Shown here piece after piece: positions 20,561 to 39,673 of a stretch of 64,000 nt of DNA; the stretch's first letter is position 1; every line of letters starts with the position of its first letter. The stretch lies in the NCBI GenBank assembly GCA_019422065.1, contig JAHZEA010000005.1, forward strand, positions 82,941 to 146,940, written 5' to 3'. The notes under the pieces were generated by a model, which was not told the origin of the DNA, did not search any database, and saw only the letters and a list, made by a program, of their open reading frames with translations. This DNA comes from Lachnospiraceae bacterium. Lineage in GTDB: Bacteria > Bacillota > Clostridia > Lachnospirales > Anaerotignaceae. A program made the position numbers and the translations under genes.

Positions 20561-20572
20561 TAAATAACCTCC

Positions 20573-21631: not shown

Positions 21632-21820
21632 AATTATCCCTCTTTCTTTAGCCGGCACATAAGCCGTTAATATTTTTATTATATTCAATTTGCGCATTAA
21701 TGACAACATAAATAAGGTAAAAACAGACTTAATTATACCACAAACCAAAAGTTATAAAACCAAAAATCAAAATTTATGTATTTTATACGTTCTTATTTAA
21801 TTGATTAATATTTTTAAACA

Positions 21821-21854
21821 CAAAAAATAAAGACGGAAACACAATATTTCCGCC
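21821..21854 (-). terminator. spoVT terminator
   Basis: On the minus strand, a ggcggaaa...tttccgtc stem is followed by tttatttttt. Confidence 0.6.
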
Positions 21855-21866
21855 TTTAAACATTAA

Positions 21867-22412
21867 TTACTGTTCCATTTGCTTTGCCAAAAATCCGGCT
21901 GCTGTCTGTGCCAATTTCCCCTCAATCTCACCCATTTTTTTGTCCTGTGATAAAAACATTACAGCGCCTATAACATCGCCTTCTGAAATAATAGGTGTTA
22001 CAAGCTGATAGTTATAGCTTTCGTCGCTTTCATCATCAAGAACCGGAACAAAGTTTCCGTCACTTCTTTTAGCATTAAGAGTGTTTCTTGAGTTAATACA
22101 CTCTTCCATAGCATCACTTATATGTTTTTCAAGGAAATCCTTTTTAGGTCCGCCGGATACAGCTATAATATGGTCTTTATCAAGTATACATGTTATATGT
22201 CCGGCTGTCTGTGCAAGACTTTCGGCATATTCTTTAGCAAAAGCACCAAGTTCCCCAACTGGCGAATATTTTTTAAGTATAATTTCGCCTTCTCTGTCTG
22301 TAAATATTTCTAAAGGGTCGCCCTCTCTAATTCTAAGAGTACGCCTTATTTCTTTTGGTATTACAATTCGACCAAGGTCGTCAATTCTTCTTACAATCCC
22401 TGTAGCTTTCAT
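21867..22412 (-). CDS. spoVT: stage V sporulation protein T (AbrB-type N-domain + GAF-like C-domain)
   Basis: MKATGIVRRIDDLGRIVIPKEIRRTLRIREGDPLEIF... Length of 181 aa matches SpoVT. Confidence 0.9.
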   Translation of the reverse strand: MKATGIVRRIDDLGRIVIPKEIRRTLRIREGDPLEIFTDREGEIILKKYSPVGELGAFAKEYAESLAQTAGHITCILDKDHIIAVSGGPKKDFLEKHISDAMEECINSRNTLNAKRSDGNFVPVLDDESDESYNYQLVTPIISEGDVIGAVMFLSQDKKMGEIEGKLAQTAAGFLAKQMEQ

Positions 22413-22561
22413 TCTACATCCTCCTGTATCTTTTTTAAACGGAATTCTAATTCCGTTCTTTTAATCTTTTTGTACTTGTAGTATTTGTATTGAGTAAAAA
22501 ATTATACAAAAAAGGAAGATACAAAGAGTTGTTGAATATTGGAAAAGTAATTCAGAATTAT
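22315..22561. repeat. left copy of a perfect 247-bp direct repeat (spoVT codons 1-33 + RBS + upstream region)
   Basis: Base-for-base identical to 37425-37671 at an offset of 15110. Confidence 0.95.
22479..22507 (-). promoter_or_regulatory. candidate forespore-type (sigmaF/G-like) promoter of spoVT
   Basis: Minus strand carries GTATA-N17-AATACTA. An overlapping TGTATAAT extended -10 is also present. This is a consensus resemblance only. Confidence 0.3.
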
Positions 22562-23172
22562 AGTTTAAATTATTTATAATTTAAGCTATAAAATGATTTT
22601 AAAGTAAATATCTACATTTTTTTGATTTTAAATGCTTTTCAGCTTACTGAGTTTTATTAAAAAGCTTTAGTTATCAAAAAATTTTTTAAGTCATTTATAT
22701 GTATCTCCTGCGTTAAAATTATAGACTTTAGATAGACAGAAGTGATTTTAACTAAACTAATTGGCTTAGAAAAAATGTCGTACTTTCAGATGTTATTTAT
22801 TAATTGTTTTCTTCCCTGCTCTATTTTTAAATTATTTTTGCTTGGACTAACAACAGAGCTAACAAGAAGATTTATAACAAGGGATATTGAAACAGAAACA
22901 GAGATTTTCCGATTATAGTTAAATAAATTTTGGACACAAAAAAACGGCTGAAACTTAAAGTTTTAACCGTTTTTAACATCATAGATAAATCCTTCTTATG
23001 TTACAAAATAAAATTGATTAAGTATTTTGAAGACAATATTAAAAGCATATATTTTATAAAATAAATATTATTAAAAATTTAAATTTTATCTTTTATAATC
23101 GATAAAATTTATATTTAAGTTGTTTTTATATTATAAACTGGATATACTATAATAAGAAAGGAGGCTTTCCCA

Positions 23173-24387
23173 ATGATTAAAAGAGAATTGTATATGAAAA
23201 AAATCCGACCTTTTATGGGCGGAGAACTTATTAAAGTAATGACCGGCATGAGAAGAAGCGGAAAGTCTGTAATGCTGGAACTTATTAAAGAAGAACTTGT
23301 GTTGCAGGGCATAGACCGAAATAACTTCATATCATTTAATTTTGAGGATATGCGTTATTCCAACATTCTTACATCCCAGGCACTGCATGACGAAATTATA
23401 AAACTTACAAAAAACATATCAGGAAAAGTATATCTGTTTTTTGATGAAATACAGGAAGTTGAAAACTGGGAAAAGTGCATTAACTCATTCAGAGTTGAGC
23501 TTGACTGCGACATATATATTACCGGCTCCAATGCCAAACTGCTTTCCGGCGAGCTTGCCACATATCTTGGCGGCAGATATGTGGAGTTTGTTATATACCC
23601 TTTTTCTTTTGCAGAATTTTCTCAAATGTATAACACAATATATCCCAATACACCAGAGGCTCAATGCTTTCAGAAATATTTAATATCCGGCGGTATGCCT
23701 TATCTTTCAAACCTCAGATATGAAGAAGAACCTTGCCGGCAGTATCTTACAGATTTATTTAATTCTGTACAGCTTAAGGATATATTAAAGCGCAACAAAA
23801 TACGTGATGTAGACCTTCTTGAACGCATTATTTCATACGTTATGGCAAACATAGGCAATACATTTTCGGCTACATCCCTTGTAAAATTTTTTAAAAGCGA
23901 AAACAGGGCTGTTTCTGCTGATACAGTGCTGAATTATATAAAATACTGCACAGACGCATATCTATTTTATCAGGTTAAGCGTCAGGACATTCAGGGAAAA
24001 CAGATACTTTCCACAAACGAAAAGTATTACATTGCAGACCACGGCATAAGAGAGGCTGTATATGGCTCAAACATGCGTGATATAAATCTTGTGCTCGAAA
24101 ACATTGTATTTATGGAGCTTATACGCCATGGATATACAGTAACTGTTGGAAAAAGCGGAGATAAAGAAGTTGACTTTGTATGCACAAAGCAAGCCAAAAA
24201 GCTTTATGTTCAGGTAACATACCTTTTGGCATCTGAAGAAACAATACAAAGGGAATTCGGTCCATTTAACAGCATACGGGACAATTTCCCTAAGTATGTT
24301 GTATCTCTTGATGAGTTTAATATGAGCCGTGATGGTATAAAACACTGCAACATAAGGGACTTTCTTTTAACGGAAGACTGGGAGTAA
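23173..24387 (+). CDS. AAA-type ATPase with C-terminal DUF4143-like domain
   Basis: Walker A GMRRSGKS and Walker B LFFDEIQ. The C-terminus (...GDKEVDFVCTK...LYVQVTY) lies where this family is predicted to have a restriction-endonuclease-like fold. Confidence 0.8.
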   Translation: MIKRELYMKKIRPFMGGELIKVMTGMRRSGKSVMLELIKEELVLQGIDRNNFISFNFEDMRYSNILTSQALHDEIIKLTKNISGKVYLFFDEIQEVENWEKCINSFRVELDCDIYITGSNAKLLSGELATYLGGRYVEFVIYPFSFAEFSQMYNTIYPNTPEAQCFQKYLISGGMPYLSNLRYEEEPCRQYLTDLFNSVQLKDILKRNKIRDVDLLERIISYVMANIGNTFSATSLVKFFKSENRAVSADTVLNYIKYCTDAYLFYQVKRQDIQGKQILSTNEKYYIADHGIREAVYGSNMRDINLVLENIVFMELIRHGYTVTVGKSGDKEVDFVCTKQAKKLYVQVTYLLASEETIQREFGPFNSIRDNFPKYVVSLDEFNMSRDGIKHCNIRDFLLTEDWE

Positions 24388-24394
24388 AGTATAA

Positions 24395-24430
24395 CCCCAC
24401 AGCTATAAAAAGCTGTGGGGGATTTAGTTT
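24395..24430 (+). terminator. terminator of the ATPase gene
   Basis: ccccacagc/gctgtgggg stem followed by T-rich sequence. Confidence 0.55.
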
Positions 24431-24456
24431 TATGTAATTATATTTTAATTTTTTAA

Positions 24457-26055
24457 TTCATAAAACAACTCTTGTTACTATTAATCTGATTATGATGCTA
24501 TAATCATTGGACACAGTCAGTTATTTCAAAACAATTCTTGTTACTATTAATCGGTGAGCAGTAGGCGGCACCTTGTCGCTGACAATAATTTCAAAACAAC
24601 TCTTGTTAATATTAATCCGCCTTAGGCGTCAGCCGCTCGGCTGTGGCAATGTAATTTCAAAACAACTCTTGTTACTATTAATCACAAAAGTTTGGTTTTG
24701 CACGCCAATAGAACGGGTATTTCAAAACAACTCTTGTTAGTATTAATCGGCTTATATTAGGTTTCCGAGGATGCCAGAAGAATTTCAAAACAACTCTTGT
24801 TAGTATTAATCTATGCAGCAGAAAATACCGGCACGGCTTGTACTTACATTTCAAAACAACTCTTGTTAGTATTAATCGGGCTTCATGCTTTAAAAGCAAT
24901 TAATCTATTTGAATTTCAAAACAACTCTTGTTAGTATTAATCTTCTCTTTTACTGCTATAATTGAGGAATTAAAATCATTTCAAAACAACTCTTGTTACT
25001 ATTAATCGTAAGTCAATAATAAGATAGTTTTTAATGTAGATTTGATTTCAAAACAACTCTTGTTACTATTAATCTACTATAACAATAGCAATATCGCCGC
25101 TGTCAACATCATTTCAAAACAACTCTTGTTACTATTAATCTTGTAATTTTGTCAGAGCCGTATTTTTCTCTTATCTCATTTCAAAACAACTCTTGTTACT
25201 ATTAATCCCCAAAAGCAAAGGAGTTTAAACGCTGGGTGACGAGATTTCAAAACAACTCTTGTTACTATTAATCCGCCTTTTTTGCAATAGAAAGACGGGT
25301 GATTAATAAATTTCAAAACAACTCTTGTTACTATTAATCATTATAATGTTGTTTATCAGCCACTTGCAAATTAATTTCAAAACAACTCTTGTTACTATTA
25401 ATCAACATTACCAAAATTTTTTGGAACACATACAACATTATTTCAAAACAACTCTTGTTACTATTAATCAAGTTCGCTCAGCTTTGTATAACTCATACAT
25501 CGTCTTATTTCAAAACAACTCTTGTTACTATTAATCAAAAGCTGCCCTTCGGCAGCTTAATTATTTGTTTTATTTCAAAACAACTCTTGTTACTATTAAT
25601 CATCTTTTCCCCCCAGTTTGTCCCCCCCATTAAAAATTTCAAAACAACTCTTGTTACTATTAATCTTGTTGTAAGCACGCCACTTGCAGACGCATATTTA
25701 TTTCAAAACAACTCTTGTTACTATTAATCCGCCGCACAATGTTCCAAACTGTGGTTTTATATTATTTCAAAACAACTCTTGTTACTATTAATCAAATGTT
25801 ATTTTCTTTTTTTCATCAGCACTCATACTATTTCAAAACAACTCTTGTTACTATTAATCGGCCGCCTGCCTGTCATTGGCTGCCCCTACATCATTTATTT
25901 CAAAACAACTCTTGTTACTATTAATCGTATACATAAAATACGCTAAGGCTTATGTGGGCGGATTTCAAAACAACTCTTGTTACTATTAATCGGTGGTATC
26001 TGCACTTTTTCTTGCTGTGGGTTCTATTTCAAAACAACTCTTGTTACTATTAATC
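24457..26055 (-). CRISPR. CRISPR array with 25 repeats of 30 nt and 24 spacers of 33-37 nt
   Basis: Plus-strand repeat is ATTTCAAAACAACTCTTGTTACTATTAATC. The transcribed sense is GATTAATAGTAACAAGAGTTGTTTTGAAAT, which has a type-I-like ...GAAAT 3' end. A degenerate terminal repeat lies at 24457-24486, and the leader and cas2 sit at the opposite end. Confidence 0.97.
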
Positions 26056-26219
26056 CCTTTGATTTTAAAAGATTTTCTAAACACTTTATGTTTAAAAATC
26101 CTTTATTTATCGAACTTCTTTAAATTTTTACCAACCTAAACCCATTTTTCATTATTTTCTGGTTTTTCTTTATTTATCAATGAATTTCAGCTTTTTATTT
26201 TTTTCGGCTGGTAAAAACA
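26056..26219 (-). promoter_or_regulatory. CRISPR leader
   Basis: 164-bp AT-rich non-coding stretch between the cas2 stop and the first consensus repeat. Polarity is inferred from the degenerate distal repeat. Confidence 0.6.
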
Positions 26220-26510
26220 TTATATTATCAAGTCTTCCCCTGTACTGTTTTTCTTGTTTCCAATAATTTCCTCGCCAAAAACATTGTCATTCTTCAACTT
26301 AATAATACAAACAAAATCTTCATCATTGCAAATGATTTTTTTCAAATCATTTTTCAAAGATATTAAATTAGAAGGTGTTATTTCTCCTCTAAAAACTGAA
26401 TATTGATAATGAGAAAGATATTTTTTGCATATTTTAAACACCTTCTGAACTCTTTTTTCCCCAACATCGTAAAAAAGAAATGCATAATTAAAATTAATTT
26501 GTTTTTTCAT
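26220..26510 (-). CDS. cas2: CRISPR-associated endoribonuclease Cas2
   Basis: 96 aa with a ferredoxin-like Cas2 pattern (YDV...RVQKV...LSHYQYSVF). Last gene of the operon. Confidence 0.9.
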   Translation of the reverse strand: MKKQINFNYAFLFYDVGEKRVQKVFKICKKYLSHYQYSVFRGEITPSNLISLKNDLKKIICNDEDFVCIIKLKNDNVFGEEIIGNKKNSTGEDLII

Positions 26511-27536
26511 TCAGAATCCTTCTTTTAGAGAAAATGGTATAAATTCTTTATCTTCTAGAATATATTTAATTAATTTATAACAATCCAGTTTTATAGCAGT
26601 TCTATAAGAAACATTTCGTTTTAACACAGCATGTTTAAAAACAGATTCAATTCTTGCTTCAAACGCTTCTATAAATATTTTTCTCCCTTCCTCGTTTAAT
26701 ACACAAAAGTTCAAATTTTTATCGAAATGTTTTTCAACCTGAATTCTTCTGTTATTTACTAATTCGAATATAGTTTTATATACAATAACTGGCTTAAATA
26801 CTTCACTTAAATCAAGGCTTAAAGAGAATCTTCTTTCCGTTGGCTGATGCAAAAAACTTATTCTTTGGTCCAAATGTGTTCTGTAAATTGCTGAAACTGT
26901 TTTTGTGTATAGCAATGTGTTTCCAAATGATATAAGTGCATTTATAGGATTATCTGGAGGACGCTTTACTCTTTTATTCATAATAAAGTCTTCTGGCAAA
27001 AAATATTTAAAATTAAAATAAAATTTCTCCCATAATTCACCCTCATAGCTCATAAGCTCATCTATTGCTTTTGCTTTGTTAACAGAAGCATAAAAGTTAT
27101 TTTTTATCCAGTCAATAGTTTGTTTTACTTCTTTTTTATCATGTTTATAATAGTGATATAGAACTTCATATATATTTTTTCCTATTCCGTTTACTATTGA
27201 TTTTGCAATATAAAGTCTTGATGTATTGAATTTTTCCACCTGTTTTATAAGAAGTTTGCCGCTAAGATATTGGTCTTTAGGATAAAAAGTCCCACTGTAG
27301 TATCCATAATAATTGAAAAAGTGCACTACAACATTATTACGGCTTAAAAAATCAAGAACTTTTGTATTTACAGAAATTTCACCCATACAATATATTTCTT
27401 TTGTATTTTCAATAGGAATATATACATTTTTTTCACCCTTGCGAAAACACAGCGAATTGTCTTTTCGAGATAACTCACCATTAGATGTTATATATCTTGT
27501 ACTACCCATTTTTAGCCCCTTTGTTATATGTAACAA
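26511..27536 (-). CDS. cas1: CRISPR-associated endonuclease Cas1
   Basis: ~330-340 aa, positioned between cas4 and cas2, with a Cas1-like C-terminal helical domain. The start may instead be the Met at 27509. Confidence 0.9.
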   Translation of the reverse strand: MLHITKGLKMGSTRYITSNGELSRKDNSLCFRKGEKNVYIPIENTKEIYCMGEISVNTKVLDFLSRNNVVVHFFNYYGYYSGTFYPKDQYLSGKLLIKQVEKFNTSRLYIAKSIVNGIGKNIYEVLYHYYKHDKKEVKQTIDWIKNNFYASVNKAKAIDELMSYEGELWEKFYFNFKYFLPEDFIMNKRVKRPPDNPINALISFGNTLLYTKTVSAIYRTHLDQRISFLHQPTERRFSLSLDLSEVFKPVIVYKTIFELVNNRRIQVEKHFDKNLNFCVLNEEGRKIFIEAFEARIESVFKHAVLKRNVSYRTAIKLDCYKLIKYILEDKEFIPFSLKEGF

Positions 27537-28015
27537 TATTCAAAATACGCGCATTTTTTACAGCTTCTGCTTTTAATTTTATCCGGAATAACATCTCCTT
27601 TAATTAAATTATCGATTTCTTTTATATATTCATCTAACTTCTGTTCAATCTCATTTGTAATTTCTAAAATAATTATTTTTTTATCTGATTTATTTTTTTC
27701 AACAAAATCAAGCCTGCCTTTTCTTATTATTCCTTTTTCTTTCAGTACTTTAAGATAAAATAAAAGCTGCCATTTTGCTGCCTCTATATCCGCATCAGAT
27801 TTTTTTACTTCAGTCAAATATTCTTTTGTAATTTTGTCAATGCGAATATTTTCAATTAAAATTTCTGTATTTTCATTTATATTTTTTTCTTCATGAATTG
27901 CCCGACCAATTTTAACAATCTCGCTGTTATCCTCAAGATTAAGTCTGTTTCCATGAAGATAGCACTGCCTTTTGCAATGAAAATAATAATTAATTAGAGT
28001 TCCGTTTACACGCAC
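27524..28015 (-). CDS. cas4: CRISPR-associated exonuclease Cas4
   Basis: 163 aa with an N-terminal Cys (YFHCKRQCY) and a C-terminal CKKCAYFEYC cluster, typical of the RecB-like Fe-S nuclease. Confidence 0.85.
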   Translation of the reverse strand: MRVNGTLINYYFHCKRQCYLHGNRLNLEDNSEIVKIGRAIHEEKNINENTEILIENIRIDKITKEYLTEVKKSDADIEAAKWQLLFYLKVLKEKGIIRKGRLDFVEKNKSDKKIIILEITNEIEQKLDEYIKEIDNLIKGDVIPDKIKSRSCKKCAYFEYCYI

Positions 28016-28033
28016 AAGAACACCTGCTTTATT

Positions 28034-30592
28034 TTATATAAAATCTCCATATTCCAGTTTACTTCGTTTAAATTTGCCGTTTTCAAAATAGTCTTCACCG
28101 TTTTCATAACACAAAAGCTCTCCTATTTTGTCATTTGGCAAAGCATTAATTTTTTCTTTATTTACTGAATAAATGAAGTTATTTAAAAGACTGCGAACTT
28201 GTGAAAGCTTCACCTGTTTTTCGGAATAATCCATCAGATTGTTTCTAAGCAGTTTTTTATAATCATTCCATATCTGCCAGCCGTCTAAAATTTTGCCGTT
28301 TTCGTCTTCTATTTTTCGGCACAGTACAACATCAACTGTCATCAAATTCTCATCAATAAGTTTCATACGCTCCGATACGTTTTTAAAATCAAGACCTGCT
28401 ACATCGTTGTCAAAAAAACTTTTTAAACCTTCTTTAGATGTACTGTTATTTTTATTTTCTTGAAGTACTTTAATTACCATTCGGTAATAATCGGAAAACC
28501 TTTTTTCTTCCAAAATATTTCTCATTTCAGGATTTTTAATACTTAAGCTTTCACTGTTTCTGTAATCATTTTTATAAATGCCCTTTTCGCTGTCATAATT
28601 AAAGAAATAGCATACGCCTTGTTTTTCAGCTGAAAAAGAACGGTTTATTCTGCCTAAAAACTGTTCTTCACTATCCAATATCGATATATCTTTATATCCT
28701 ATATCCATATCAATATCCTCACCGGCTTCTATTACTTGGGTAGCTATTAAAAGAGCTTCTTTAACTGTTTTTTCTCTTATCGGTTTAAGTATTTTTTCAC
28801 GCTCAAGCGCCGAATCGTCTCCGGTAATAAGAAATACTGGTATGTCAAAACTCTCATCACAGCATATATCCTGATAAAATTCTTCTGCTGTTGACTTTTT
28901 TATAAACTCAACAAGTATTTTTGTTCCTTTTCCGCAATTTTTCTTTATATGCTCTTTTAATAGCAGCAAATAATCTTCGTTGTCGCAACCGGTATCTATA
29001 AGCTCATAAGAAAGCTTAACTCTGTTTTTAAACACAGGATTATTAAAATACTCACAGCTGTTTTTTAAAAGATGTACAACATTACAGTCAGCGCCTGCAA
29101 GCAGCTCAAGCTCCGGAAGTGTTGCAGACATAATTATTATTTTAATATTCATTAAATCCGCACATTCTTTTAAAAATATAATTATTTCAGCCCATATAGA
29201 ATTTTTATAACTCTGTATTTCATCAAGAACCACTACAGAATCAATAAGCTGCAAAAACGAAAACAAGTTTTCTCTTTTATCACCAAAAAGAGCTGAAAAA
29301 AAGCTCACATGGGTTGTAAGTATAAACGGGTAGTTTAAAAATTGTCTATCCAAAAGAGCATTTTTATAATAATTTTCCGTATCATCTTTTTGTTTAGAAT
29401 TTCCTATTGGGGTAATTGAATTAATAACGGTTATTTTGTTTTTCAAATTTTCATTATTAAAAGATTTGTACAGTACATTTTTATTCTGCTCAACCAGAGT
29501 ATTAAAAGGATACACATAAAACAGTTTCTTTCTGTTTTCCATAAGCATAAAGCTGAGATTTAATGCAGTGTTACTTTTTCCACTTCCCGTAGGAGCTTCA
29601 AGGAAGAATATATTTTCTTTATCGTCACTTTTTGAAATACATTTTTTAAGGCTATTTTCGGCATTTAAAAATATATTGCTTCTTAGTTCGTTCATATCCG
29701 AAATGTCCGAAATTTTTATATTTTTATTGCTTTTTTCATAATTTCTTATACCCTTATAAACAGCAGAGCTTTTATAAACATTATAAAACTCTTTTATGTC
29801 TTCCATTGTACCAAAGTACTGTTTTTCCATACCGTCCATATATTCTGTTGTGGAATAATAATCACATGATACAAGAACTGAGTAAGCAAGCCTTAGCAAA
29901 AAATATTTTGCTATTCCTTCATTCCTGTTTACAGATATATTTCTTTCGTAGCTGTTTAAAAGTTTTTTTAGATATTTTTTATCAATTGAAAATTTTTGTT
30001 TTAGTCCTTTAGCCTCATTACCTTTAAAAAAATCTATAATGTCATAGTTATCAGCAATTTTACCGAAATAATCATTAATTCTTGTTAAATCACTATGATG
30101 TCTTGATATTATGTAAGAAAACTCTATTACAGCAAATTTAAACCTTTTTTTCTTATCATCACAAACATCTATTACATCAAGCTTTTTTAAAAAATAATCC
30201 ATGTATATTAAAGACGAAAGAAATGAATGGTCACTTCCTGACAATCCATAAATATATTCATCATTTTTAAAGCATGGATTATTCATTTTTTCTTTCTGAA
30301 AAGCAGGATTAACTTTTCCCGTATCGTGGAATATTATCATTTGGTAAAAAAGTTCATATAAAAGTTCTTTATCCTTTTCAGTATCTGCAAAGCTTAATTT
30401 ATCAGCATATCCGAAAATGACTTTTTTTAAATTTTTGTCCTGTAATATTTTATTAAAATATTTATTGCAGCGCATAATATGTTCCCCCAGTGTTTCACCG
30501 GGGGAATTTTTCTTTGTATGAGCAAGCAGTGTTACGTTTTCATCTATAACATTATTAAAATCAGAAAAACACGATATTTCTTTGACCATCAT
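28034..30592 (-). CDS. cas3: CRISPR-associated helicase/nuclease Cas3 (HD + SF2 helicase)
   Basis: HD motif ...IIFHDTGKVNP..., Walker A EAPTGSGKS and DEIQ box. Length is 852 aa. Confidence 0.9.
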   Translation of the reverse strand: MMVKEISCFSDFNNVIDENVTLLAHTKKNSPGETLGEHIMRCNKYFNKILQDKNLKKVIFGYADKLSFADTEKDKELLYELFYQMIIFHDTGKVNPAFQKEKMNNPCFKNDEYIYGLSGSDHSFLSSLIYMDYFLKKLDVIDVCDDKKKRFKFAVIEFSYIISRHHSDLTRINDYFGKIADNYDIIDFFKGNEAKGLKQKFSIDKKYLKKLLNSYERNISVNRNEGIAKYFLLRLAYSVLVSCDYYSTTEYMDGMEKQYFGTMEDIKEFYNVYKSSAVYKGIRNYEKSNKNIKISDISDMNELRSNIFLNAENSLKKCISKSDDKENIFFLEAPTGSGKSNTALNLSFMLMENRKKLFYVYPFNTLVEQNKNVLYKSFNNENLKNKITVINSITPIGNSKQKDDTENYYKNALLDRQFLNYPFILTTHVSFFSALFGDKRENLFSFLQLIDSVVVLDEIQSYKNSIWAEIIIFLKECADLMNIKIIIMSATLPELELLAGADCNVVHLLKNSCEYFNNPVFKNRVKLSYELIDTGCDNEDYLLLLKEHIKKNCGKGTKILVEFIKKSTAEEFYQDICCDESFDIPVFLITGDDSALEREKILKPIREKTVKEALLIATQVIEAGEDIDMDIGYKDISILDSEEQFLGRINRSFSAEKQGVCYFFNYDSEKGIYKNDYRNSESLSIKNPEMRNILEEKRFSDYYRMVIKVLQENKNNSTSKEGLKSFFDNDVAGLDFKNVSERMKLIDENLMTVDVVLCRKIEDENGKILDGWQIWNDYKKLLRNNLMDYSEKQVKLSQVRSLLNNFIYSVNKEKINALPNDKIGELLCYENGEDYFENGKFKRSKLEYGDFI

Positions 30593-31259
30593 TAAACACC
30601 TGCTCTTTTATTTCAAAGTCATCTTCATCTGTAAAATAAAATTTTTTCATAATATACTGATTAGTTGAAAGTTTCAATCCTGTCGGAAGATATTCTTCAT
30701 ACTTAAAAGTAAAACTATCCCATTTTGAGCTTATATAGTCCTGAGGAATAAGACTCTGTATTTCGTCACCCTCTTTCTCCATAAGGCTGACAAAAGAACT
30801 ATCCTCTATAACAGCCGGGTGGTCATTTTTACCTAAATACGGCATATATACACATTTTCTTTCGTGTATCATCTGGGCAATCCTTTTTGAAATATCTCCG
30901 TCAATCATCAAATAAACTATCCAGGAAGGATTTTCAAGCCACTGCTCTTTTACAACTAAATTTCCTCCTTCTTCCTGAGAAGCATAACCAACAGAATTAT
31001 TAAATACTTGAATTTTTTTTGGAAAATATCCGTTTTCCGATTCCGGTACAATTGCTATTTTTATATCTTTAAGCTTCTCATAATATTCCGGGTAATCATC
31101 ATACTTGCTTTCGTAGCCTTTATACCCCATAACAGCTCCAAATATTCCAATAAGTGCCGGTTTATGTATCTGCCCGAAAGTAAAGTAATAGTATGAATTA
31201 ACTTCAGGATTTTTGAAGAATGCGGTTTTGCCTCTTAATCTGAATTTTAAAGCTTCCAT
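30561..31259 (-). CDS. cas5: CRISPR-associated protein Cas5, subtype I-B
   Basis: N-terminal LKFRLRGKTAFFKNPEVNS is a Cas5 signature. Sits between cas7 and cas3. Confidence 0.8.
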   Translation of the reverse strand: MEALKFRLRGKTAFFKNPEVNSYYYFTFGQIHKPALIGIFGAVMGYKGYESKYDDYPEYYEKLKDIKIAIVPESENGYFPKKIQVFNNSVGYASQEEGGNLVVKEQWLENPSWIVYLMIDGDISKRIAQMIHERKCVYMPYLGKNDHPAVIEDSSFVSLMEKEGDEIQSLIPQDYISSKWDSFTFKYEEYLPTGLKLSTNQYIMKKFYFTDEDDFEIKEQVFNDGQRNIVFF

Positions 31260-31286
31260 AAATTATATGTCCCACCTTAATACAGC

Positions 31287-32231
31287 TTATAACTTTTTAT
31301 TTGTTACAATATCGAAAATTTCTGCATTTTGTATATTATGCTTAAGCTCGGTTGTATTTGAATTATAATAAATTTCTATGGATTTTATTTTTTCTTTATA
31401 TGTTTCTAAAAGCTCTCCACAGTTTGCACTTATTATATTTTTACCCTCATTTTTTTCAAATGTTATATATTCCGTTAAATTAGGAATATATAAGTCTTTT
31501 TCAGTTTCAACAAACATTGCAAACTCATTTTCACAGCCTTCTTTTGCATTTGTTGCATAGGCAGTTGCACAAACAAGTGCTGTTCTTTTAAAGTTTTTAT
31601 AGTCTTCCTGTGTATATCCTTCAGTAACGCCAAGGCTTACATATTCTTTGTATGCCATAGGGTTAATTACAAAAGGATACATATAGTGAGCTTCATCACT
31701 TACAATTTTTGTACCAAGTGTTGAATTCTTAGCTTCTCCTTTATCTGTTGCCTTGCTGGCATCACGAAATGGTGAAAGTATTGACTGTTCCTGTGGTTCA
31801 CTGTCTTTATAAATATTGAATCCCTGTCCAAATTGTACAGCACCGGTTATTGATATATTAGTTCCTGCTTCTGCAAATGTAGCACCAAAATTCTTAACAT
31901 CAACTGCACTAAATAAATTTTTAAGAACCTCCTCCGCATTTTTGCAGTTTTTTAAATCATCTACTTTATAAAGATACTCATATCTCTCTTTTAAACTTCT
32001 TGGTATTAATGAAACTTCACCTTTTTTGCTTTCAATTCGCATAGATTTAATATAAATTACATTTTTACCTTCGTTATCCCACATTTTTTTCATAGGGTAT
32101 TTTAAAGCTTTATCACTTCCGTATGTATCACCACTTGATGTTGTTTTTGGGTATCCGGAAAAATCTGCATTCCAGTTAGCCATAATTGAAGATATTCCTA
32201 AAACACCATATACACGTTTATCCATTTCCAT
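31287..32231 (-). CDS. cas7: CRISPR-associated protein Cas7 (Csh2/Cst2-like), subtype I-B
   Basis: GVLGISSIMANWNADFSGYPK... resembles the DevR/Csh2 family N-terminus. Operon position supports the call. Confidence 0.8.
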   Translation of the reverse strand: MEMDKRVYGVLGISSIMANWNADFSGYPKTTSSGDTYGSDKALKYPMKKMWDNEGKNVIYIKSMRIESKKGEVSLIPRSLKERYEYLYKVDDLKNCKNAEEVLKNLFSAVDVKNFGATFAEAGTNISITGAVQFGQGFNIYKDSEPQEQSILSPFRDASKATDKGEAKNSTLGTKIVSDEAHYMYPFVINPMAYKEYVSLGVTEGYTQEDYKNFKRTALVCATAYATNAKEGCENEFAMFVETEKDLYIPNLTEYITFEKNEGKNIISANCGELLETYKEKIKSIEIYYNSNTTELKHNIQNAEIFDIVTNKKL

Positions 32232-34007
32232 TTATATTTCCTCGCTTTCGTTTTCTTTTAATGCCTTTTCATATATTAAGCTGTTTGAAACAAAACCTGC
32301 CATAAGTTCTTCTTTATATATTTTTTCCGGTTCATAAAGCATAATATGGCTTAATAATTTATTGATTCTTGAACCATTATTTGCCTCAATTAAATAGTTA
32401 TATTTTATATACATCTGCCTTATTAATCTTTTAATAACTTCATCTTTAGATGTATTTAAAAAAGGATTTATAAACGATTCAGATTTTTTGTTTGACTTAC
32501 TTAATGTACTCAGGTAATATACAGCCTGTCCAACAGCAAAAGAATACTCTTTGTCAGAATTAAAATCCCAATTTTTTTCTTTTGGAGCATTTATATGCTC
32601 CCTTAAATCTTCAACTATTTTATTCATACTTTCTCCTATCCTCCTGTTTGGATAAAAATATTCAATTAAAGACCATCTCAAATTAAACTGTTCTTTTGCA
32701 CTTAAAATAAAATTTTTACTTATTGATGCTTTAATAATTTTTAATGTTACATCTTCAAGAACATTTACAGCATTATTTTTGCTTCCGGTATAAAACCATG
32801 CTGAAAGAGAATTCCTTGCCTCTAAAAAGTATTTTTTTATAGAAATATTCAAAAATGATATATCTTTTGGGTCTGTATCAATGTTATTTTCAAGTTTTCC
32901 TTCAAAAAAGACTTTATCTATTAAATATTTTAATTTCCAAAGTTCGCTTAAATTTTTGCCGTATTCAAGATAAGATTTATTTTCATCTACACACATATAG
33001 TTTTTAAGTTTAAACTTTTTATCCAGCTCTGGTTTATATTCTGGTACTGATTCAGCATACTGAATTTCAGCTTCATTTTTGCCTTTTCTAAGCCTCATAT
33101 AGTATGCACTTGAAAAATATTTCGGCTTATTTTTGTTGTCATAATATTCTATTTTGCCATCGCCTATATAAACATGGTAATTGCCATTTGATACAACAGT
33201 CATTAAATAGTCAAACAGTTTTGCATGAAGCAGTATGTTGTTTTGATTAACTAAATATGGTGTGCTTATTTTTCTAGTTTTATTTTCAAGATATGGCTTT
33301 TTACTATTTAAACCTATGTTATTATTTGGAAATCCTATTATTTGATTTTCATCAACAATATTAAAGTCATTGTTATTATATATATTAGGAATAATATATC
33401 TGTTACTTTCTTTTTTATATAAATCAAGTGTTTTTTGTTTATCATTAAATATAAAAAATATTTTCAAATAATCCTTACTAGTTAAATCTATATCAGACCA
33501 TATATTTCTTAATAATACAATACTTTCTATTTTGTTAATTAAATCTGCCTGAGGTATACCAATAACTTCTTCTTCGCTGATATATATCTGTTTTGTTTTT
33601 GGTTTTTTACCGTATTTTTTCAATGGATTTTTCAGTATTTCATAGTAAGACTTATATACTTCATCACTAACTTTATTTAATAAATTCTCTTTCTTTACAG
33701 CTAAAGACATGTAGTTATTTGTATGGATTATTTTATTCGGATCAATAGGTTTATTCATATCAATAAGTTTGCTATAATAATCAAGCTGGCAGATGTATTT
33801 ATAATACTCATCTTCAGAACCTATAACTGTCTTATTTTTCTTATCATTTTTAATATCAAGTGTTTTTATTATTTTGTAAGAATCTTCTGTAAGTTCAATA
33901 AGCCTGTATGTTCCGTCTTTTGGTATGTACGAATCGATTATAATGGAATCTCCGTTTTCATCTATCATACGTTTAAATGTTTCCAATGCTTCATTAATCA
34001 ATTGCAA
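32232..34007 (-). CDS. cas8b: CRISPR-associated large subunit Cas8b (Csh1/Cst1-like)
   Basis: 591 aa, poorly conserved family. Assigned mainly from its position between cas6 and cas7 in an I-B type operon. Confidence 0.7.
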   Translation of the reverse strand: MQLINEALETFKRMIDENGDSIIIDSYIPKDGTYRLIELTEDSYKIIKTLDIKNDKKNKTVIGSEDEYYKYICQLDYYSKLIDMNKPIDPNKIIHTNNYMSLAVKKENLLNKVSDEVYKSYYEILKNPLKKYGKKPKTKQIYISEEEVIGIPQADLINKIESIVLLRNIWSDIDLTSKDYLKIFFIFNDKQKTLDLYKKESNRYIIPNIYNNNDFNIVDENQIIGFPNNNIGLNSKKPYLENKTRKISTPYLVNQNNILLHAKLFDYLMTVVSNGNYHVYIGDGKIEYYDNKNKPKYFSSAYYMRLRKGKNEAEIQYAESVPEYKPELDKKFKLKNYMCVDENKSYLEYGKNLSELWKLKYLIDKVFFEGKLENNIDTDPKDISFLNISIKKYFLEARNSLSAWFYTGSKNNAVNVLEDVTLKIIKASISKNFILSAKEQFNLRWSLIEYFYPNRRIGESMNKIVEDLREHINAPKEKNWDFNSDKEYSFAVGQAVYYLSTLSKSNKKSESFINPFLNTSKDEVIKRLIRQMYIKYNYLIEANNGSRINKLLSHIMLYEPEKIYKEELMAGFVSNSLIYEKALKENESEEI

Positions 34008-34019
34008 TCACCGCCTTTT

Positions 34020-34736
34020 TCAAAGGTATCTGTAATTCATAAAACCACAACCGCGGCTGTTATTTTCCAAAATTCCTGTACCAAGACTCATATACCAAAG
34101 TTTTTGAGCTGTTTCATTTTTTGATGCAACAAAATTCAGTTTATCACCCAAAAGTACTATACCTTTATAGTTTGTTTTAACGGGCTTTTTGTTTTTAAAT
34201 TCTATAAGGTCATAAAGCTGAAAATCCTCATTAAGTTTTTCTCCAGTAAAACTATTATATTTTTTAATAAGGTTAATTTTAAGTCTGTTTTCATATTCAG
34301 ATAGAGCCATATTTTCTTTCCAATAGCCTTCTCTGCATTTAATTAATGCCGGTGTAAGGGTATATACTGTTTCCAATATCTTTTCAGGTATAACCCTAAT
34401 TTCTCCTCCAACGCAGCATATTTCTTCTGATTTATGAAATCTGATATTTTTCACAAAATAATTGGCAAGTCTTTCATCTATGGTCCTTATACGCACAGTA
34501 TATATTTTTTCTGGTTTGTATATTTTATCTTCTTCCGGCTTATATGCCATATCAAAAACATAATTTTTATAGCAATTACTTATATGAAAATTTAAAAGTT
34601 CATTATCTTTTGATATTAAGCTATCAATAAAATTTGCCATTTTTTCCGAAAAAGATTCGTATTTTAAGTTATTTTTAAAGACTATCCTGCAAATATATTC
34701 ATATACAATCATATTTCTCATCCTCTTTATAAGCAA
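34020..34736 (-). CDS. cas6: CRISPR-associated endoribonuclease Cas6
   Basis: ~230 aa, first gene of the operon, with a C-terminal glycine-rich loop (SLGTGILENNSRGCGFMNY). The exact start is uncertain. Confidence 0.75.
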   Translation of the reverse strand: MLIKRMRNMIVYEYICRIVFKNNLKYESFSEKMANFIDSLISKDNELLNFHISNCYKNYVFDMAYKPEEDKIYKPEKIYTVRIRTIDERLANYFVKNIRFHKSEEICCVGGEIRVIPEKILETVYTLTPALIKCREGYWKENMALSEYENRLKINLIKKYNSFTGEKLNEDFQLYDLIEFKNKKPVKTNYKGIVLLGDKLNFVASKNETAQKLWYMSLGTGILENNSRGCGFMNYRYL

Positions 34737-35239
34737 TAATTAAGTTCACAATATATTACAAATTATATCACAATATACAAATTTCAACAACTTGTCTGTA
34801 TTTTTTTCTAATATTTATTATTTTATATATATTTATTATAAAAGTTTTTTTGCTAAATTAGCAATATGATAAATATATTTATATTTAATTAATATTTATT
34901 ATTATATTTTTATAATCTTGTCAATAAAAATTTTAGAATATATTTTAAAATACTATTTAAATTACAAATAAAAGTTTCCTTTTGATTTTAAATGATATTT
35001 ATCGTTTAAAATTCATACTTCTTATATTTTAAAATATATTTGATTTTTAAATTGAAGTTACAATAAATCAACATAGAATTTATGTTTATTTAATTAAGAG
35101 CACTGACTTTTACAAATTATCGGAAGAAAAATTGTTAAATGAGTTTTGAACTGATTTGATACGATTTTACGGTTTATTCTGAATATAACTTTAATACCAT
35201 AAAGCTTAAGTCGAAATTTTTTTATTTTTTATAAATAGC

Positions 35240-35287
35240 AGAAATAAAAAATCTGAAATGGGTATTTAGTTTATTCCATTCCAGATT
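35240..35287 (-). terminator. hairpin terminator ~240 nt downstream of the pfkB-family kinase
   Basis: aatctgaaatgg/ccattccagatt stem with one mismatch and T-runs on both strands. Confidence 0.4.
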
Positions 35288-35524
35288 CTTTTATTTTCAT
35301 CATGTATTAAAATTAACAAATTTGTATTATATCTTTATTATTATGAACTAATATTGTAACATCAGTAGCTGAATTCAGAAAAATATATTCTTAAGCACAC
35401 AGCGCTCAATCCAAATTTAGCTATTGTTTCAATCAAAATGATGCCTGCTACTGCTTGACATCGGAACAATTACAACTAACATCAGGAATTAAAACCCATG
35501 CCTCTTATTACCATTTTCATATCA

Positions 35525-36463
35525 TTACTTTTCTAATCCTATCAACTCTGCTTTGGTAGGCATAGCAGGAATTGCTCCACTTTTTGAACATGTAAAAGAC
35601 GCAGCACGATTTGCCAATGCAATATGAGATTCCAACACATCTATAGAACATGTACGCCAATTTGATTCTTGTGCCAATCCGCACAACAATGCACCAAAAA
35701 ATGTATCTCCTGCACCATTGGTATCGACTACAGTTGTTTTTACTCCTGGTACAATACCTGTTTTGTTATTATAGCGATAATACGCCCCTTCACTGCCCAT
35801 AGTAATCAATACCAAAGAAATACCATATTCAGATAATATAGAGCTACCTTCTTCCAAATTGGTTGTACCTGTCAGCAGCGGCAGCTCCTCATCTGAAATT
35901 TTCAAAATATCCACCATAGGCAATGGATTTTTCATCCATTTAACAGCCTCTTCTTCTGATTCCCACAAAGATGCACGGTAATTGGGATCATAGCTGATAC
36001 AAATGTTATTTTGTCTTGCTTGTGATACAATATTAAGTGTAGTTGTACGTGCAGGTTCCGCTGTCAAACTTACAGAACCAAAATGCAGTATTTTTGTATT
36101 TATACAACCAGAAATATCTATGTCACTTGTTGTCAATGCACAATCTGCGCCACGCACAAATTGGAAAGAACGCTCTCCTTTTGTATTCACAGAAACGATT
36201 GCCATAGTTGTTGGCATGTTGTGGGAACACAAAAAATCTGTAGAAACATTATATTGCTCCAGTGTTTCTTTTAAATATGTACCAAATGCATCTTTGCCAA
36301 CCATACCATAAAATGCAGTCTTTGCCCCTAGTTTCGACGCAGCAACTGCCACATTTGCAGGTGCACCGCCTGGATTTGCAGCATAGATAGGTATATTTTG
36401 TGAATTTTTTCCTGTTTGTGTTAAATCAATTAAAATTTCTCCAATGGATACAATATCAAACAT
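35525..36463 (-). CDS. PfkB-family carbohydrate kinase (fructokinase-like)
   Basis: N-terminal GEILIDL...GGAPANVA and C-terminal DTNGAGDTFFGALL motifs. Confidence 0.85.
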   Translation of the reverse strand: MFDIVSIGEILIDLTQTGKNSQNIPIYAANPGGAPANVAVAASKLGAKTAFYGMVGKDAFGTYLKETLEQYNVSTDFLCSHNMPTTMAIVSVNTKGERSFQFVRGADCALTTSDIDISGCINTKILHFGSVSLTAEPARTTTLNIVSQARQNNICISYDPNYRASLWESEEEAVKWMKNPLPMVDILKISDEELPLLTGTTNLEEGSSILSEYGISLVLITMGSEGAYYRYNNKTGIVPGVKTTVVDTNGAGDTFFGALLCGLAQESNWRTCSIDVLESHIALANRAASFTCSKSGAIPAMPTKAELIGLEK

Positions 36464-36520
36464 ATATTACCATATCCTTCCTACTCTCTTTTAAGATATT
36501 AACTGTAAACGATTTCAAAT

Positions 36521-36772
36521 TCAATCTATCATATTTACTGCTAAAAAATCAAATATTTCAATAAGAAACTGCATTAATCTTTTTCTACAAATACCATAAA
36601 ATATTATTTTTATATAGTAATCAGTTAATTTTCTCAACATATGTATAGCTTCCGCTTCTAGTATTTCAACTTCTAATTCACCACATATTTTCCTAAATAT
36701 TTGAATTATATCTTTTCTTGTAATATATAAATTTTCTTCTATATTTGGTTGCAAATACTTTTCTGTATTCAC
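36521..36772 (-). CDS. hypothetical 83-aa ORF, possibly a gene remnant
   Basis: The ORF is the only evidence. The upstream DNA contains additional short broken frames. Confidence 0.2.
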   Translation of the reverse strand: MNTEKYLQPNIEENLYITRKDIIQIFRKICGELEVEILEAEAIHMLRKLTDYYIKIIFYGICRKRLMQFLIEIFDFLAVNMID

Positions 36773-37061
36773 ATCAACAACTTAAATAAGCTGTTTGTTT
36801 TATTTAGTTTTTCACATAGTTTAAAACCTTTAATTTACTTTTTTGATGCATCTGGCAAATCAGTCTTTTTAGCATCATAGAATTTTTCATTTACCAATAT
36901 GTTTTATCTAGCTCTAACATAACCAAGGTTTATCTATGATGAACACCAATTAAAACAAAACTAAACATTATTCATTGTAATTAATGTTGTATTATAATCA
37001 TTTTTCATTGTAATTTTTGTAATTACTGAGTTTACTATATATAAAAGCTCAGTAAGGAGGA

Positions 37062-37424
37062 ATGTCCATGTACCGAACAGCCATAGAAAAACTATACAAA
37101 TGGAAAAACAGCAAACATCGAAAGCCATTAATAATAGAAGGTGCAAGGCAGGTAGGAAAAACCTGGCTCATGAAGGAATTTGGCAGCAAAGCTTATAGCA
37201 ACACAGTGTATATCAACTTTGATTCCAATTCCATAATGACAGAGCTTTTTGCTTCAGACCTTAACACAGATAGGCTAATTATGGGGATAGAGCTGTATGT
37301 GGGCAGAAAAATTGACCCGAATAATACACTTTTAATTTTTGACGAAGTGCAGGAAGTGCCAAGAGCATTATCATCTCTTAAATATTTTTATGAAAATGCA
37401 CCTCAGTATCACATTGTTTGTGCC
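37062..37424 (+). pseudogene. 3'-truncated AAA ATPase (DUF4143-family N-terminal third)
   Basis: MYRTAIEKLYKW...IIEGARQVGKTW (Walker A)...LLIFDEVQE (Walker B)...IVCAGS. Homology stops exactly at the repeat boundary at 37425. The rest of the listed ORF is the antisense of the spoVT fragment. Confidence 0.8.
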
Positions 37425-37522
37425 GGGTCGCCCTCTCTAATTCTAAGAGTACGCCTTATTTCTTTTGGTATTACAATTCGACCAAGGTCGTCAATTCTTC
37501 TTACAATCCCTGTAGCTTTCAT
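37409..37522 (-). pseudogene. orphan spoVT 5' fragment (37 codons) with intact RBS and upstream region
   Basis: MKATGIVRRIDDLGRIVIPKEIRRTLRIREGDP is followed by AQTM and a stop once the frame leaves the repeat. Confidence 0.75.
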
Positions 37523-37671
37523 TCTACATCCTCCTGTATCTTTTTTAAACGGAATTCTAATTCCGTTCTTTTAATCTTTTTGTACTTGTAGTATTTGTAT
37601 TGAGTAAAAAATTATACAAAAAAGGAAGATACAAAGAGTTGTTGAATATTGGAAAAGTAATTCAGAATTAT
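37425..37671. repeat. right copy of the perfect 247-bp direct repeat
   Basis: Identical to 22315-22561. Confidence 0.95.
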
Positions 37672-38138
37672 TTTCAATATATTTTTATTAATTTCAGTAT
37701 ATATTATTCTAACATACCTGCCAAGCAAGTCCATATAATATGTATCTTTTACAGCTTTTTCAAATCCTTAGTAATACAATCTGCGTATATATGCCGGCTT
37801 TAAATTACTTAGGCTCATGGAAAACATGGGGATTCCGCAGTCACCACAGTATAAAAAACGGGAATACACATTATCATATTTTTTACACCCCTGTAATGGG
37901 AACGTGTTTTTTCTTCTGTTCCTGTGCCATAGCAAAAACTTGTTTACCTATAATGGCTTCGTGGTGATTTTCAAATACAATATAATCAATCTCGTTTTCT
38001 TAAATTCCATTTATGGTAATTATTCTCCACTCGTTTTTGCTTTTATTTTTGCTATTTTTAATATCCCCAGCCTTCGTTATAGCGAGTAAATATTGTCTGC
38101 ACTACCTGCGCTGCCACCTGATTTATAGAAAGTTTCAT
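37672..38138 (-). pseudogene. decayed large serine recombinase (recombinase domain + zinc ribbon; no catalytic N-domain; frameshifted, with several stops)
   Basis: Minus-strand fragments read MKLSINQVAAQVVQTIFTRYNEGWGY*, ...NEWRIITINGI*, ENEIDYIVFENHHEAIIGKQVFAMAQEQKKK..., and after a frameshift FLYCGDCGIPMFSMS...YIRRLYY*. The HEAII and YCGDCG motifs are typical of PF07508/PF13408 recombinases. Confidence 0.65.
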
Positions 38139-38268
38139 GATTTTAGTATTTTAATAATAATATAGTCCATATGGTACAGCATAATTATAATTTCTATTCA
38201 GCATAGAAATTAGACCTTTTTACATTAAAAAGTATTAAATATATCATTCAAACGAAATCATCGCGTCT

Positions 38269-38316
38269 ATAAAAAAGCCCATCCATTTCGTTAATGGTAT
38301 AACGAAACAGATGGGT
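38269..38316 (-). terminator. terminator of the secreted-protein gene
   Basis: On the minus strand, a cccatctgtttcgtta...taacgaaatggatggg stem is followed by cttttttat. Confidence 0.6.
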
Positions 38317-38388
38317 TCCATAAAATGCCCTGCTAAGCGAAAGAGGTGTTTTTTACTGTATAGAATTGTTCACTCTAAAAATTACTAT

Positions 38389-39420: not shown

Positions 39421-39673
39421 AATACGTCCTCCTAAGTAAATATTTTTAAAGTAACTTTGTCTGTGGAGCAAAGATTGCCCTTTTTATTCTGTCAAACGAA
39501 AAAATTATATTTTTAACTGTTTTTATAATTATGAAGAATTAAATCCATACTTTCTGTATTAATCAAAAATACTTATTTCCATCTGACATTTTTTAGACAC
39601 ATAAAAAAATCAATTGGTTTTATATTTTTAAAAAATTTTGAAAAAAATTTTTATTTTCCCGTAATTTTTCATT

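Follow-up and report, generated by a model that had tools for sequence, protein, structure and literature searches.

A type I-B CRISPR-Cas island between direct repeats of the spoVT 5' end: probable recombinational stacking at a defence-island hot spot

Defence islands have hot spots between conserved core genes, where turnover usually proceeds by two homologous exchanges that replace the cargo. Integration of the Campbell type, exemplified by F-prime factors, specialised transducing phage and the single crossovers of suicide plasmids, leaves the homologous segment directly duplicated on both sides of the insert and can be reversed by recombination between the copies. Elements that encode a large serine recombinase (LSR) interrupt genes, as skin does in sigK, SPbeta in spsM and A118 in comK. 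The locus analysed here lies in a 64,000-nucleotide stretch of a Lachnospiraceae bacterium (assembly GCA_019422065.1, contig JAHZEA010000005.1, positions 82,941 to 146,940 of the forward strand; hereafter the window, with coordinates counted from its first nucleotide), in which a complete type I-B CRISPR-Cas locus is bracketed by perfect 247-bp direct repeats of the 5' end and promoter region of the sporulation gene spoVT. The reading preferred here, with a probability of roughly 0.55, is that one homologous exchange and one non-homologous join stacked a defence island at a hot spot; the 15.1-kb unit would then be a recombination scar without self-mobility.

One end anchored in conserved sequence and the other joined without homology are features of homology-facilitated illegitimate recombination (HFIR), which has been proposed for the add-on modules of type VI secretion system effector-immunity arrays and Rhs loci, where it displaces older pieces downstream (PMC5361080), and has been shown in E. 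coli conjugation (PMC3240628); the reference list of the latter paper cites the original reports, from Acinetobacter, S. pneumoniae and P. stutzeri. The spoVT locus shares with HFIR this asymmetry of its two ends, the placement of new cargo beside the anchor with older material (here a spoVT stub and the old upstream DNA) displaced as orphans, and the lack of a dedicated recombinase. It differs in that the displaced piece is a perfect 247-bp copy of the anchor's 5' end and promoter, which makes a long direct repeat; in that the cargo is a full CRISPR-Cas system of ~15 kb; and in that microhomology at the joint in the window, which comes from an uncultured Clostridia lineage, is not demonstrable. 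The CRISPR island beside spoVT is a clear example of a known process and not a new kind of element.

The repeat pair is established by self-comparison of the window. Positions 22315-22561 (copy 1) and 37425-37671 (copy 2) are identical base for base over 247 nt at an offset of 15110; the match extends 0 nt beyond either end, flank identity is at the random level of ~30%, and the pair is the sole long repeat in the 64-kb window apart from those of the CRISPR array. The length of the exact match excludes a chance origin. Between the copies lies an island of 14.9 kb, which makes the unit 15.1 kb. No inverted repeats were found with the pair, and 247 bp is too long for the target-site duplication of a transposition event (2-15 bp). 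On the minus strand each copy contains 98 nt from the start of spoVT (codons 1-32 in full, followed by 2 nt of codon 33) together with 149 nt of the DNA upstream of the gene, with an AGGAGG ribosome-binding site (22420-22425 in copy 1) and a hairpin with a 9-bp stem (22438-22457 in copy 1; -11.3 kcal/mol, z = -4.6 against shuffled sequences). To inspection by eye, GTATA-N17-AATACTA at 22479-22507 of copy 1 resembles a forespore-type promoter and is a candidate for one. An earlier interpretation made from the letters of the window alone (below, the sequence-only reading) had described identical direct repeats around the CRISPR-Cas locus, given their content as spoVT codons 1-33, ribosome-binding site, hairpin and about 150 bp of upstream DNA, and judged them too long for a target-site duplication; all of this holds, with codon 33 being partial.

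The two copies have different neighbours. Copy 1 is continuous on its left with an intact spoVT gene (21867-22412, minus strand), which encodes 181 amino acids with Pfam matches to SpoVT_C (4.8e-49) and MazE_antitoxin (AbrB/MazE fold, 1.3e-13) and whose exact protein is present on 58 contig blocks; on its right the island begins. Copy 2 is an orphan consisting of a spoVT promoter, a ribosome-binding site and 33 codons. It yields a 37-aa stub open reading frame (ORF; 37409-37522, minus strand) ending in ...REGDPAQTM*, and its right side is continuous with ancestral upstream DNA. The inner edge of copy 2 cuts a plus-strand AAA_14 ATPase gene after codon 119. What is left of this gene, codons 1-119 at 37068-37424, matches Pfam AAA_14 and positions 3-125 of the PADLOC PDC-S01 profile (8.7e-56), and homologs continue ...CAGSLLGIALH at the point at which the window copy is cut. 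The truncated reading frame runs on through copy 2 to 37574 to give a 168-aa chimera; the 49-residue tail that the sequence-only reading found in common between two ORFs of the window is the antisense reading of the repeat.

An empty site is present in another sample. Locus L010 (ERZ23867148) has an intact spoVT and one repeat joined directly to the homolog of the DNA from 37672 onward: it matches window 20544-22559 at 96% identity and is then colinear with 37672-43758 at 80-92%, and a 23-nt indel at the repeat edge is the sole difference in colinearity. By this comparison copy 2 runs into the ancestral upstream DNA and copy 1 into the island. This differing continuity of the two copies implies that the incoming DNA brought its own spoVT 5' end. 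L010 is the empty-site relative, one repeat copy followed by 37672 onward, for which the sequence-only reading had proposed a search, and it upholds that reading's claim of an insertion. The "simple" arrangement upstream of spoVT into which the insertion was supposed to have gone does not survive, since the slot is hypervariable and has held many cargos.

The variability of the slot is seen in ten further loci that encode the same or nearly the same SpoVT and belong to this species or a sister species; in them homology to the window ends at repeat positions 232-247. At least five other strain-specific cargos diverge at the outer repeat end: an MmeI-type restriction-modification gene lies upstream of the repeat in L003, L005, L006, L007 and L008 (in L005 and L007 it separates the repeat from the FUSC_2 gene, window 42037-43992), polysaccharide-synthesis genes in L002, a LysR-type regulator in L009 and other genes in L004, from the sister species. 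The divergence of so many cargos at 232-247 marks the outer repeat end as the edge of a conserved spoVT promoter block, and the slot upstream of spoVT is a hypervariable defence-island hot spot. As at other such hot spots, alternative defence cargos occupy one slot across strains while the boundary on the spoVT side is conserved; unlike them, the new cargo has here been stacked onto the old, leaving a duplication. Further to the right in the window no third spoVT stub was found that would be the trace of an older cycle. Several strains hold defence genes in the slot: PDC-S01 and CRISPR in the window, MmeI-type restriction-modification elsewhere.

The joint of ATPase codon 119 to spoVT codon 33 is real and has been inherited by several strains. 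The window is 100% identical to a 129-kb ENA metagenome scaffold (KIMC21-1_SAMN16796178), and the same proteins are found on a 156-kb NCBI contig, so that two separate large assemblies give the integrated order. An independent Logan assembly of SRR13061019 (L012) is 100% identical to window 31764-37454 and stops exactly 30 nt (k-1) into the repeat, as a k = 31 graph does at a true branch. The exact 168-aa chimera (ATPase residues 1-119 plus antisense repeat) is also encoded in SMIT22-1_SAMN19715403 (L025), and a 111-aa fragment of it in OLIV22-1_SAMN24806670 (L028). Both of these contigs carry single-nucleotide polymorphisms (SNPs) relative to the window in the flank of the joint, two of which, 37286T and 37301T, are shared and private to the pair, and all 247 repeat bases are unchanged in both. 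Its presence in three samples, with SNPs in the flanks, shows that the joint is no isolated chimera. Positions 1-33 of L028, at its left end, have no counterpart in the window or in any of 207 fetched loci: the ATPase fragment of this contig is cut on the 5' side as well, at window position 37242, and material to the left of the scar accordingly varies between carrier strains.

What follows the repeat is not the same in these contigs. L028 goes from the ATPase fragment through the repeat to 37672 onward, as does the window; L025 goes from the ATPase fragment (36944-37424) through the repeat to 22562-22859, the start of the island, at 98.3% identity. The L025 joint is what would be expected of a circle, of a tandem copy or of recombination between the repeats, but a mis-threaded graph would give the same contig; it is suggestive only, because a repeat longer than k lets the assembler thread either path. 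An extreme form of this concern supposes that the chromosome has an empty site (spoVT, repeat, 37672 onward), that repeat plus island exist separately as a 15.1-kb circle or tandem array, and that assembly has threaded the one into the other once. The source is indeed a short-read metagenome scaffold, a de Bruijn graph cannot separate an integrated island from a circle plus an empty site when the repeat exceeds k, the Logan contig breaks off after k-1 nt of the repeat, and L025 has the circle-type joint. Yet the 129-kb and the 156-kb assemblies both give the integrated order, L028 links the ATPase fragment and repeat to the ancestral DNA in another sample, the 15.1 kb contains no replication or partition gene, and the fusion of ATPase to spoVT is real in the reads under any of these readings. 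An episome or an artefact of this kind is very unlikely. The warning in the sequence-only reading that the arrangement might be an assembly artefact is answered for the joint, which three samples contain, and keeps its force for the exact order of the parts, which is still subject to short-read graph ambiguity.

Repeat, empty site, a joint in three samples, a hot spot and a unit that has no recombinase gene are the observations from which the preferred reading starts; to these it adds a donor arrangement, an order of events and an expectation of present-day deletion or amplification. The ancestral chromosome would have had spoVT, its promoter region of ~150 bp and then the DNA from 37672 onward, as L010 still has. 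The donor would have been a related strain already carrying an island directly upstream of the spoVT promoter, comprising a PDC-S01 ATPase, the I-B array and cas operon, a PfkB gene, an insertion sequence (IS) remnant and a second PDC-S01 ATPase. The first join would have been made by ordinary homologous recombination in the shared sequence on the spoVT side; the second, non-homologous, would have connected codon 119 of the donor's second ATPase gene with codon 33 of the resident spoVT. The incoming piece would supply the 5' end and promoter of spoVT, so that the gene stays whole through copy 1, while those of the resident gene would be left 15.1 kb away as a stub (copy 2). The repeat would accordingly span the distance from the illegitimate joint to the limit of homology between donor and recipient. 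The duplicated segment is the resident 5' end and promoter of spoVT, and its outer end is the limit of homology, as such a scar requires.

The topology of the incoming DNA could have been either of two: a circle closed by the illegitimate joint and integrated in the manner of Campbell, or a linear fragment undergoing HFIR; the products would be identical. The likeness to Campbell integration lies in the direct duplication of the homologous segment on both sides, in its reversibility by recombination between the copies, and in the presence in L025 of the joint predicted for the circle; the difference is that the putative circle has no replicon or transfer genes and must itself stem from an illegitimate deletion. 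The sequence-only reading had offered Campbell integration or an element that brings a replacement 5' end. From this the incoming DNA's own spoVT 5' end can be kept; a self-mobile element finds no support, and circle and linear fragment are indistinguishable. RecA-type recombination between the repeats would remove the island precisely and leave the empty site again, or would make a tandem duplicate of it. Recombination with precise loss of the island had also been predicted by the sequence-only reading, and the joint expected of such an event (ATPase fragment, repeat, island start) exists in one contig, L025. The orphan promoter and stub of copy 2 would be transcribed antisense into the ATPase fragment.

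Several points weigh against this reading. Microhomology at the joint is ~2 nt (GG), as estimated from a homolog of 85% identity. No strain of the donor type, with the island beside spoVT, a full second ATPase gene and no duplication, was found by exact-protein look-ups in a thinly sampled lineage, and all three samples that can be checked at the ATPase joint carry it. The copies are 100% identical and share a private SNP in the hairpin loop (C) that is absent from 10 other strains, which requires that the donor belonged to the same lineage, that gene conversion came afterwards or that the origin was intragenomic. The inner end of the repeat falls within ~3-8 nt of the attachment point of a family of serine recombinases (discussed below), a coincidence of ~1-3% under a random joint. 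Since the source is a short-read metagenome, the order spoVT, repeat, island, repeat, ancestral DNA depends on the assembler's resolution of a 247-bp repeat, and L025 and L028 connect differently after that repeat.

The identity of the copies and their shared private SNP would be accounted for if a tandem duplication had come first. An unequal illegitimate exchange between sister strands, ATPase codon 119 with spoVT codon 33, would have duplicated an island already in place, and the second island would then have been swapped for the cargo that begins at 37672 by ordinary homologous recombination, with copy 2 and the FUSC_2 side as arms. This sequence of events predicts a fixed joint from ATPase fragment through repeat to island start, which is what L025 has, with SNPs of its own, and swapping of cargo is common at this slot. 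It requires two events, however, the second of which would have to recreate exactly the adjacency of repeat and ancestral DNA seen in L010; no contig with two copies of the island was found; and L025 and L028 share SNPs yet differ after the repeat, which graph ambiguity or ongoing recombination fits equally well. Duplication followed by a swap is therefore quite unlikely, and stacking by one homologous and one non-homologous join continues to be preferred.

The proximity of the inner repeat end to an attachment point leads to the serine recombinases. Relatives of the organism carry LSR elements in the 5' coding region of spoVT, at two sites. At the first (site B, spoVT codon 30/31), a 714-aa ORF of isolate B68 (L034 8312-10456), an isolate that came up in a SpoVT scan of the GTDB representatives, is an LSR that continues in frame into SpoVT residues 31-181. 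Four IMG/VR contigs (L110, L111, L113 and L114) and GenBank MT836658 (L198 441-2591) carry this fusion too. SpoVT identities of 39-75% indicate that the site-B elements have diverse Clostridia as hosts. The conserved arm of the site-B element reads GTCAATGTTATCAGTnnn, followed by GGNGAYCC (codons 31-33). In the window the repeat terminates, at its inner end, directly after GGCGACCC, and one viral contig breaks inside GGTGA. The protein database holds further, partial LSR-SpoVT fusions. It also holds many SpoVT proteins of 146-171 aa that consist of SpoVT_C only, with no N-terminal AbrB/MazE domain (P0192, P0206, P0211, P0214, P0215, P0244 and P0293), one such SpoVT_C-only protein coming from the complete genome of Chakrabartyella piscis; these suggest that breaks near codons 30-33 of spoVT are common.

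The second site (site A, spoVT codon 10/11) is occupied in some strains of the window's own species, where three tandem LSR genes abut the 3' part of spoVT (L029 1071-6704) and the junction gives a read-through ORF of 209 aa (P0122, P0129). In the IMG/VR contigs L150 and L190 the SpoVT match starts at residue 11, which suggests the same breakpoint at codon 10/11. The window itself contains the remains of an LSR gene. Found by blastn and by tblastn with the B68 recombinase, this decayed, frameshifted gene (residues ~161-344; 37786-38180, minus strand) lies 115 nt beyond copy 2 and points towards copy 2 and spoVT. It is also present in L010 (5757-6102), and its presence in the empty-site strain shows that it predates the CRISPR insertion. 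These findings reveal the 5' coding region of spoVT as a recurrent landing site for LSR elements in many Clostridia. The literature searched yielded no paper that connects spoVT to serine recombinases or to intervening elements.

An LSR could accordingly have made the inner joint: the stub of copy 2 would be attL-like or would have arisen when the spoVT attB recombined with a pseudo-site in the ATPase gene, and copy 1 with the island would have come later, by homologous "repair". In its favour are the in-frame fusions with their shared arm of GTCAATGTTATCAGTnnn and GGNGAYCC, the additional partial fusions, the end of the repeat right after GGCGACCC together with the viral contig that ends inside GGTGA, the decayed gene of the same family near copy 2 both in the window and in L010, and the codon-10/11 elements of the species itself. 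The geometry and the content of the unit speak otherwise. The island has no LSR gene; the decayed one is on the far side of copy 2, which is wrong for an attL; none of six family members has an AAA_14 ATPase within 10-17 kb of its LSR gene; and the lost side of the ATPase gene is, on sequence comparison, unlike the conserved element arm. The breakpoint is offset by up to 8 nt, with the crossover placed only approximately: the attL and attP of the site-B family were not recovered from 10 kb of the element, from a walk to the far end of one viral contig or from GenBank phages, which gave integrated junctions or uninformative ends. A comparison of the ATPase N-terminus with viral contigs retrieved two unrelated loci and no spoVT stub. 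In relation to the gene-interrupting LSR elements as a class, then, the likeness is that relatives carry such elements in the 5' part of spoVT and that the inner repeat end adjoins that site; the differences are that the unit has no LSR gene, that its ends, so far as they are open to testing, do not resemble att sites, and that spoVT is a forespore gene, whereas the classic developmental elements hit mother-cell genes.

An LSR origin of the inner joint is, on balance, unlikely. The wider proposal, that a spoVT-targeting serine recombinase made this joint and that the slot turns over its defence cargo because such elements sit there, is improbable as well. Were it true, recombination at pseudo-sites releasing circles of repeat plus island, or transduction of flanking DNA from prophages in spoVT, would be possible routes; the 15.1-kb unit would amount to a cassette moved by a recombinase acting in trans; and the elements that split spoVT would form a class not described before, one whose target is a forespore-specific sporulation gene.

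The content of the island was determined by Pfam searches of every ORF of 100 aa or more and of a selection of smaller intergenic ORFs. It begins with ~610 nt of AT-rich non-coding DNA (22562-23172) with no credible ORF. A full-length AAA_14/DUF4143 ATPase gene follows (23173-24387, plus strand), which matches the PADLOC candidate PDC-S01 (PDLC04787) at 1.4e-162 over the full profile; by profile match, both ATPases of the unit are thus candidate defence genes of the PDC-S01 type. The CRISPR array (24457-26055, minus strand) has 25 repeats of 30 nt and 24 spacers, with a degenerate, old end at low coordinates, and its leader is inferred to lie at 26056-26219, adjoining cas2. The cas operon (26220-34736, minus strand) consists of cas2 (26220-26510), cas1 (26511-27536), cas4 (27524-28015), cas3 (28034-30592, with helicase and Cas3-like_C_2 matches), cas5 (30561-31259, 232 aa), cas7 (31287-32231), cas8b (32232-34007, 591 aa) and cas6 (34020-34736). 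All have Pfam matches except cas5 and cas8b, which are assigned by position and size alone. With this assignment, the order cas6-cas8b-cas7-cas5-cas3-cas4-cas1-cas2 and an array of ~30-nt repeats are those of type I-B, and the gene list of the sequence-only reading needs the small qualification that cas5 and cas8b have no Pfam match. Beyond cas6 are a PfkB-family sugar kinase gene (35525-36463, minus strand; Pfam PfkB 4.9e-60), which has no pathway partners nearby, and, between it and the truncated ATPase gene, a decayed remnant of an IS200-like Y1 transposase gene (36578-36815, minus strand; tblastn with residues 1-85 of the Y1_Tnp of L008, E = 1e-9, in two frames) that overlaps an 83-aa ORF at 36521-36772. 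An intact relative of this transposase gene sits between FUSC_2 and MmeI in L008.

No integrase, recombinase, excisionase, intact transposase, replication, partition or transfer gene is among the products of the 15.1 kb. SXT in prfC sets a precedent for an element that supplies a replacement 5' end, and the left copy does furnish promoter and 5' end to the only intact spoVT, with direct repeats on both sides of the unit. An autonomous site-specific island with 247 bp of attachment identity, replacing the spoVT 5' end, is nevertheless extremely improbable: integrase and excisionase genes are absent, one end of the unit is a truncated gene and not a defined terminus, the unit was found neither at spoVT nor elsewhere in other species (GTDB representatives, JGI metagenomes), and the cas module moves separately.

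This last point follows from two other contexts. The cas operon and array recur at 89% nucleotide identity (window 25307-34793) in GCA_944383885.1 (L026 8115-18750), directly after smpB and the tmRNA gene, where no repeats were found flanking the module, and the cas operon at 95% (window 27537-34963) in GCA_944384255.1 (L208 2039-9468), beside unrelated small genes. The ATPase and PfkB genes are absent next to the module in both. The island is therefore composite: its cas module travels from one hot spot to another without the remainder, and the PfkB gene, the IS remnant and the ATPase fragment have the look of older debris left behind at the site. The whole unit with the same ends was seen only in this lineage, and its recurrence elsewhere was not found: a PfkB scan of GTDB representative genomes gave no relatives, and exact-pattern scans of JGI metagenomes for the novel joint and for the conserved spoVT start gave 0 matches. 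In the SpoVT scan of GTDB representatives the best match was only 76-79% identical, which means that this collection does not include the species; nor do the JGI metagenomes searched.

The array and the first ATPase gene have been met in other samples as well. Contigs from two further samples (L014 and L015) have the oldest spacers and an identical PDC-S01 ATPase; both of them, corresponding to window 23102/23157-25140, end just upstream of the ATPase start, and this hints at another strain-variable boundary near 23100-23160. The spacers match neither the window itself nor the fetched serine-recombinase elements. Spacer 12 (25208-25243) is the sole one with any match in the GenBank phage collection, a marginal one of 31/33 nt in the antirepressor gene of Streptococcus phage Javan187. 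P0074, a close homolog of the ATPase with more than 200 contig blocks listed, has TGA at codon 118. In 8/8 of the P0074 loci inspected (L016-L023; for example L016 6001-7298) it is part of an island that also has genes for HEPN ApeA, Mrr and type I restriction-modification and, in some of these loci, for GmrSD. A site-specific truncation of the ATPase, suspected because the top homologs are short, was discarded: these homologs differ in length, and the majority are incomplete genes on short contigs. Nor is the widespread 117-aa P0074 a truncated form of this kind; it is a nonsense pseudogene, the remainder of which follows in place.

What the locus offers is a case that shows, junction by junction, how a lineage of gut Clostridia can gain a complete CRISPR-Cas system without the machinery of a mobile element. 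The gain leaves behind, in 247-bp identical repeats, a built-in route to precise loss or to amplification, which bears on the patchiness of CRISPR-Cas among close strains. The promoter edge of spoVT is marked as a defence-island hot spot, and the elements that split the gene in relatives raise the question of how the gene for a forespore regulator tolerates or exploits LSR insertions.

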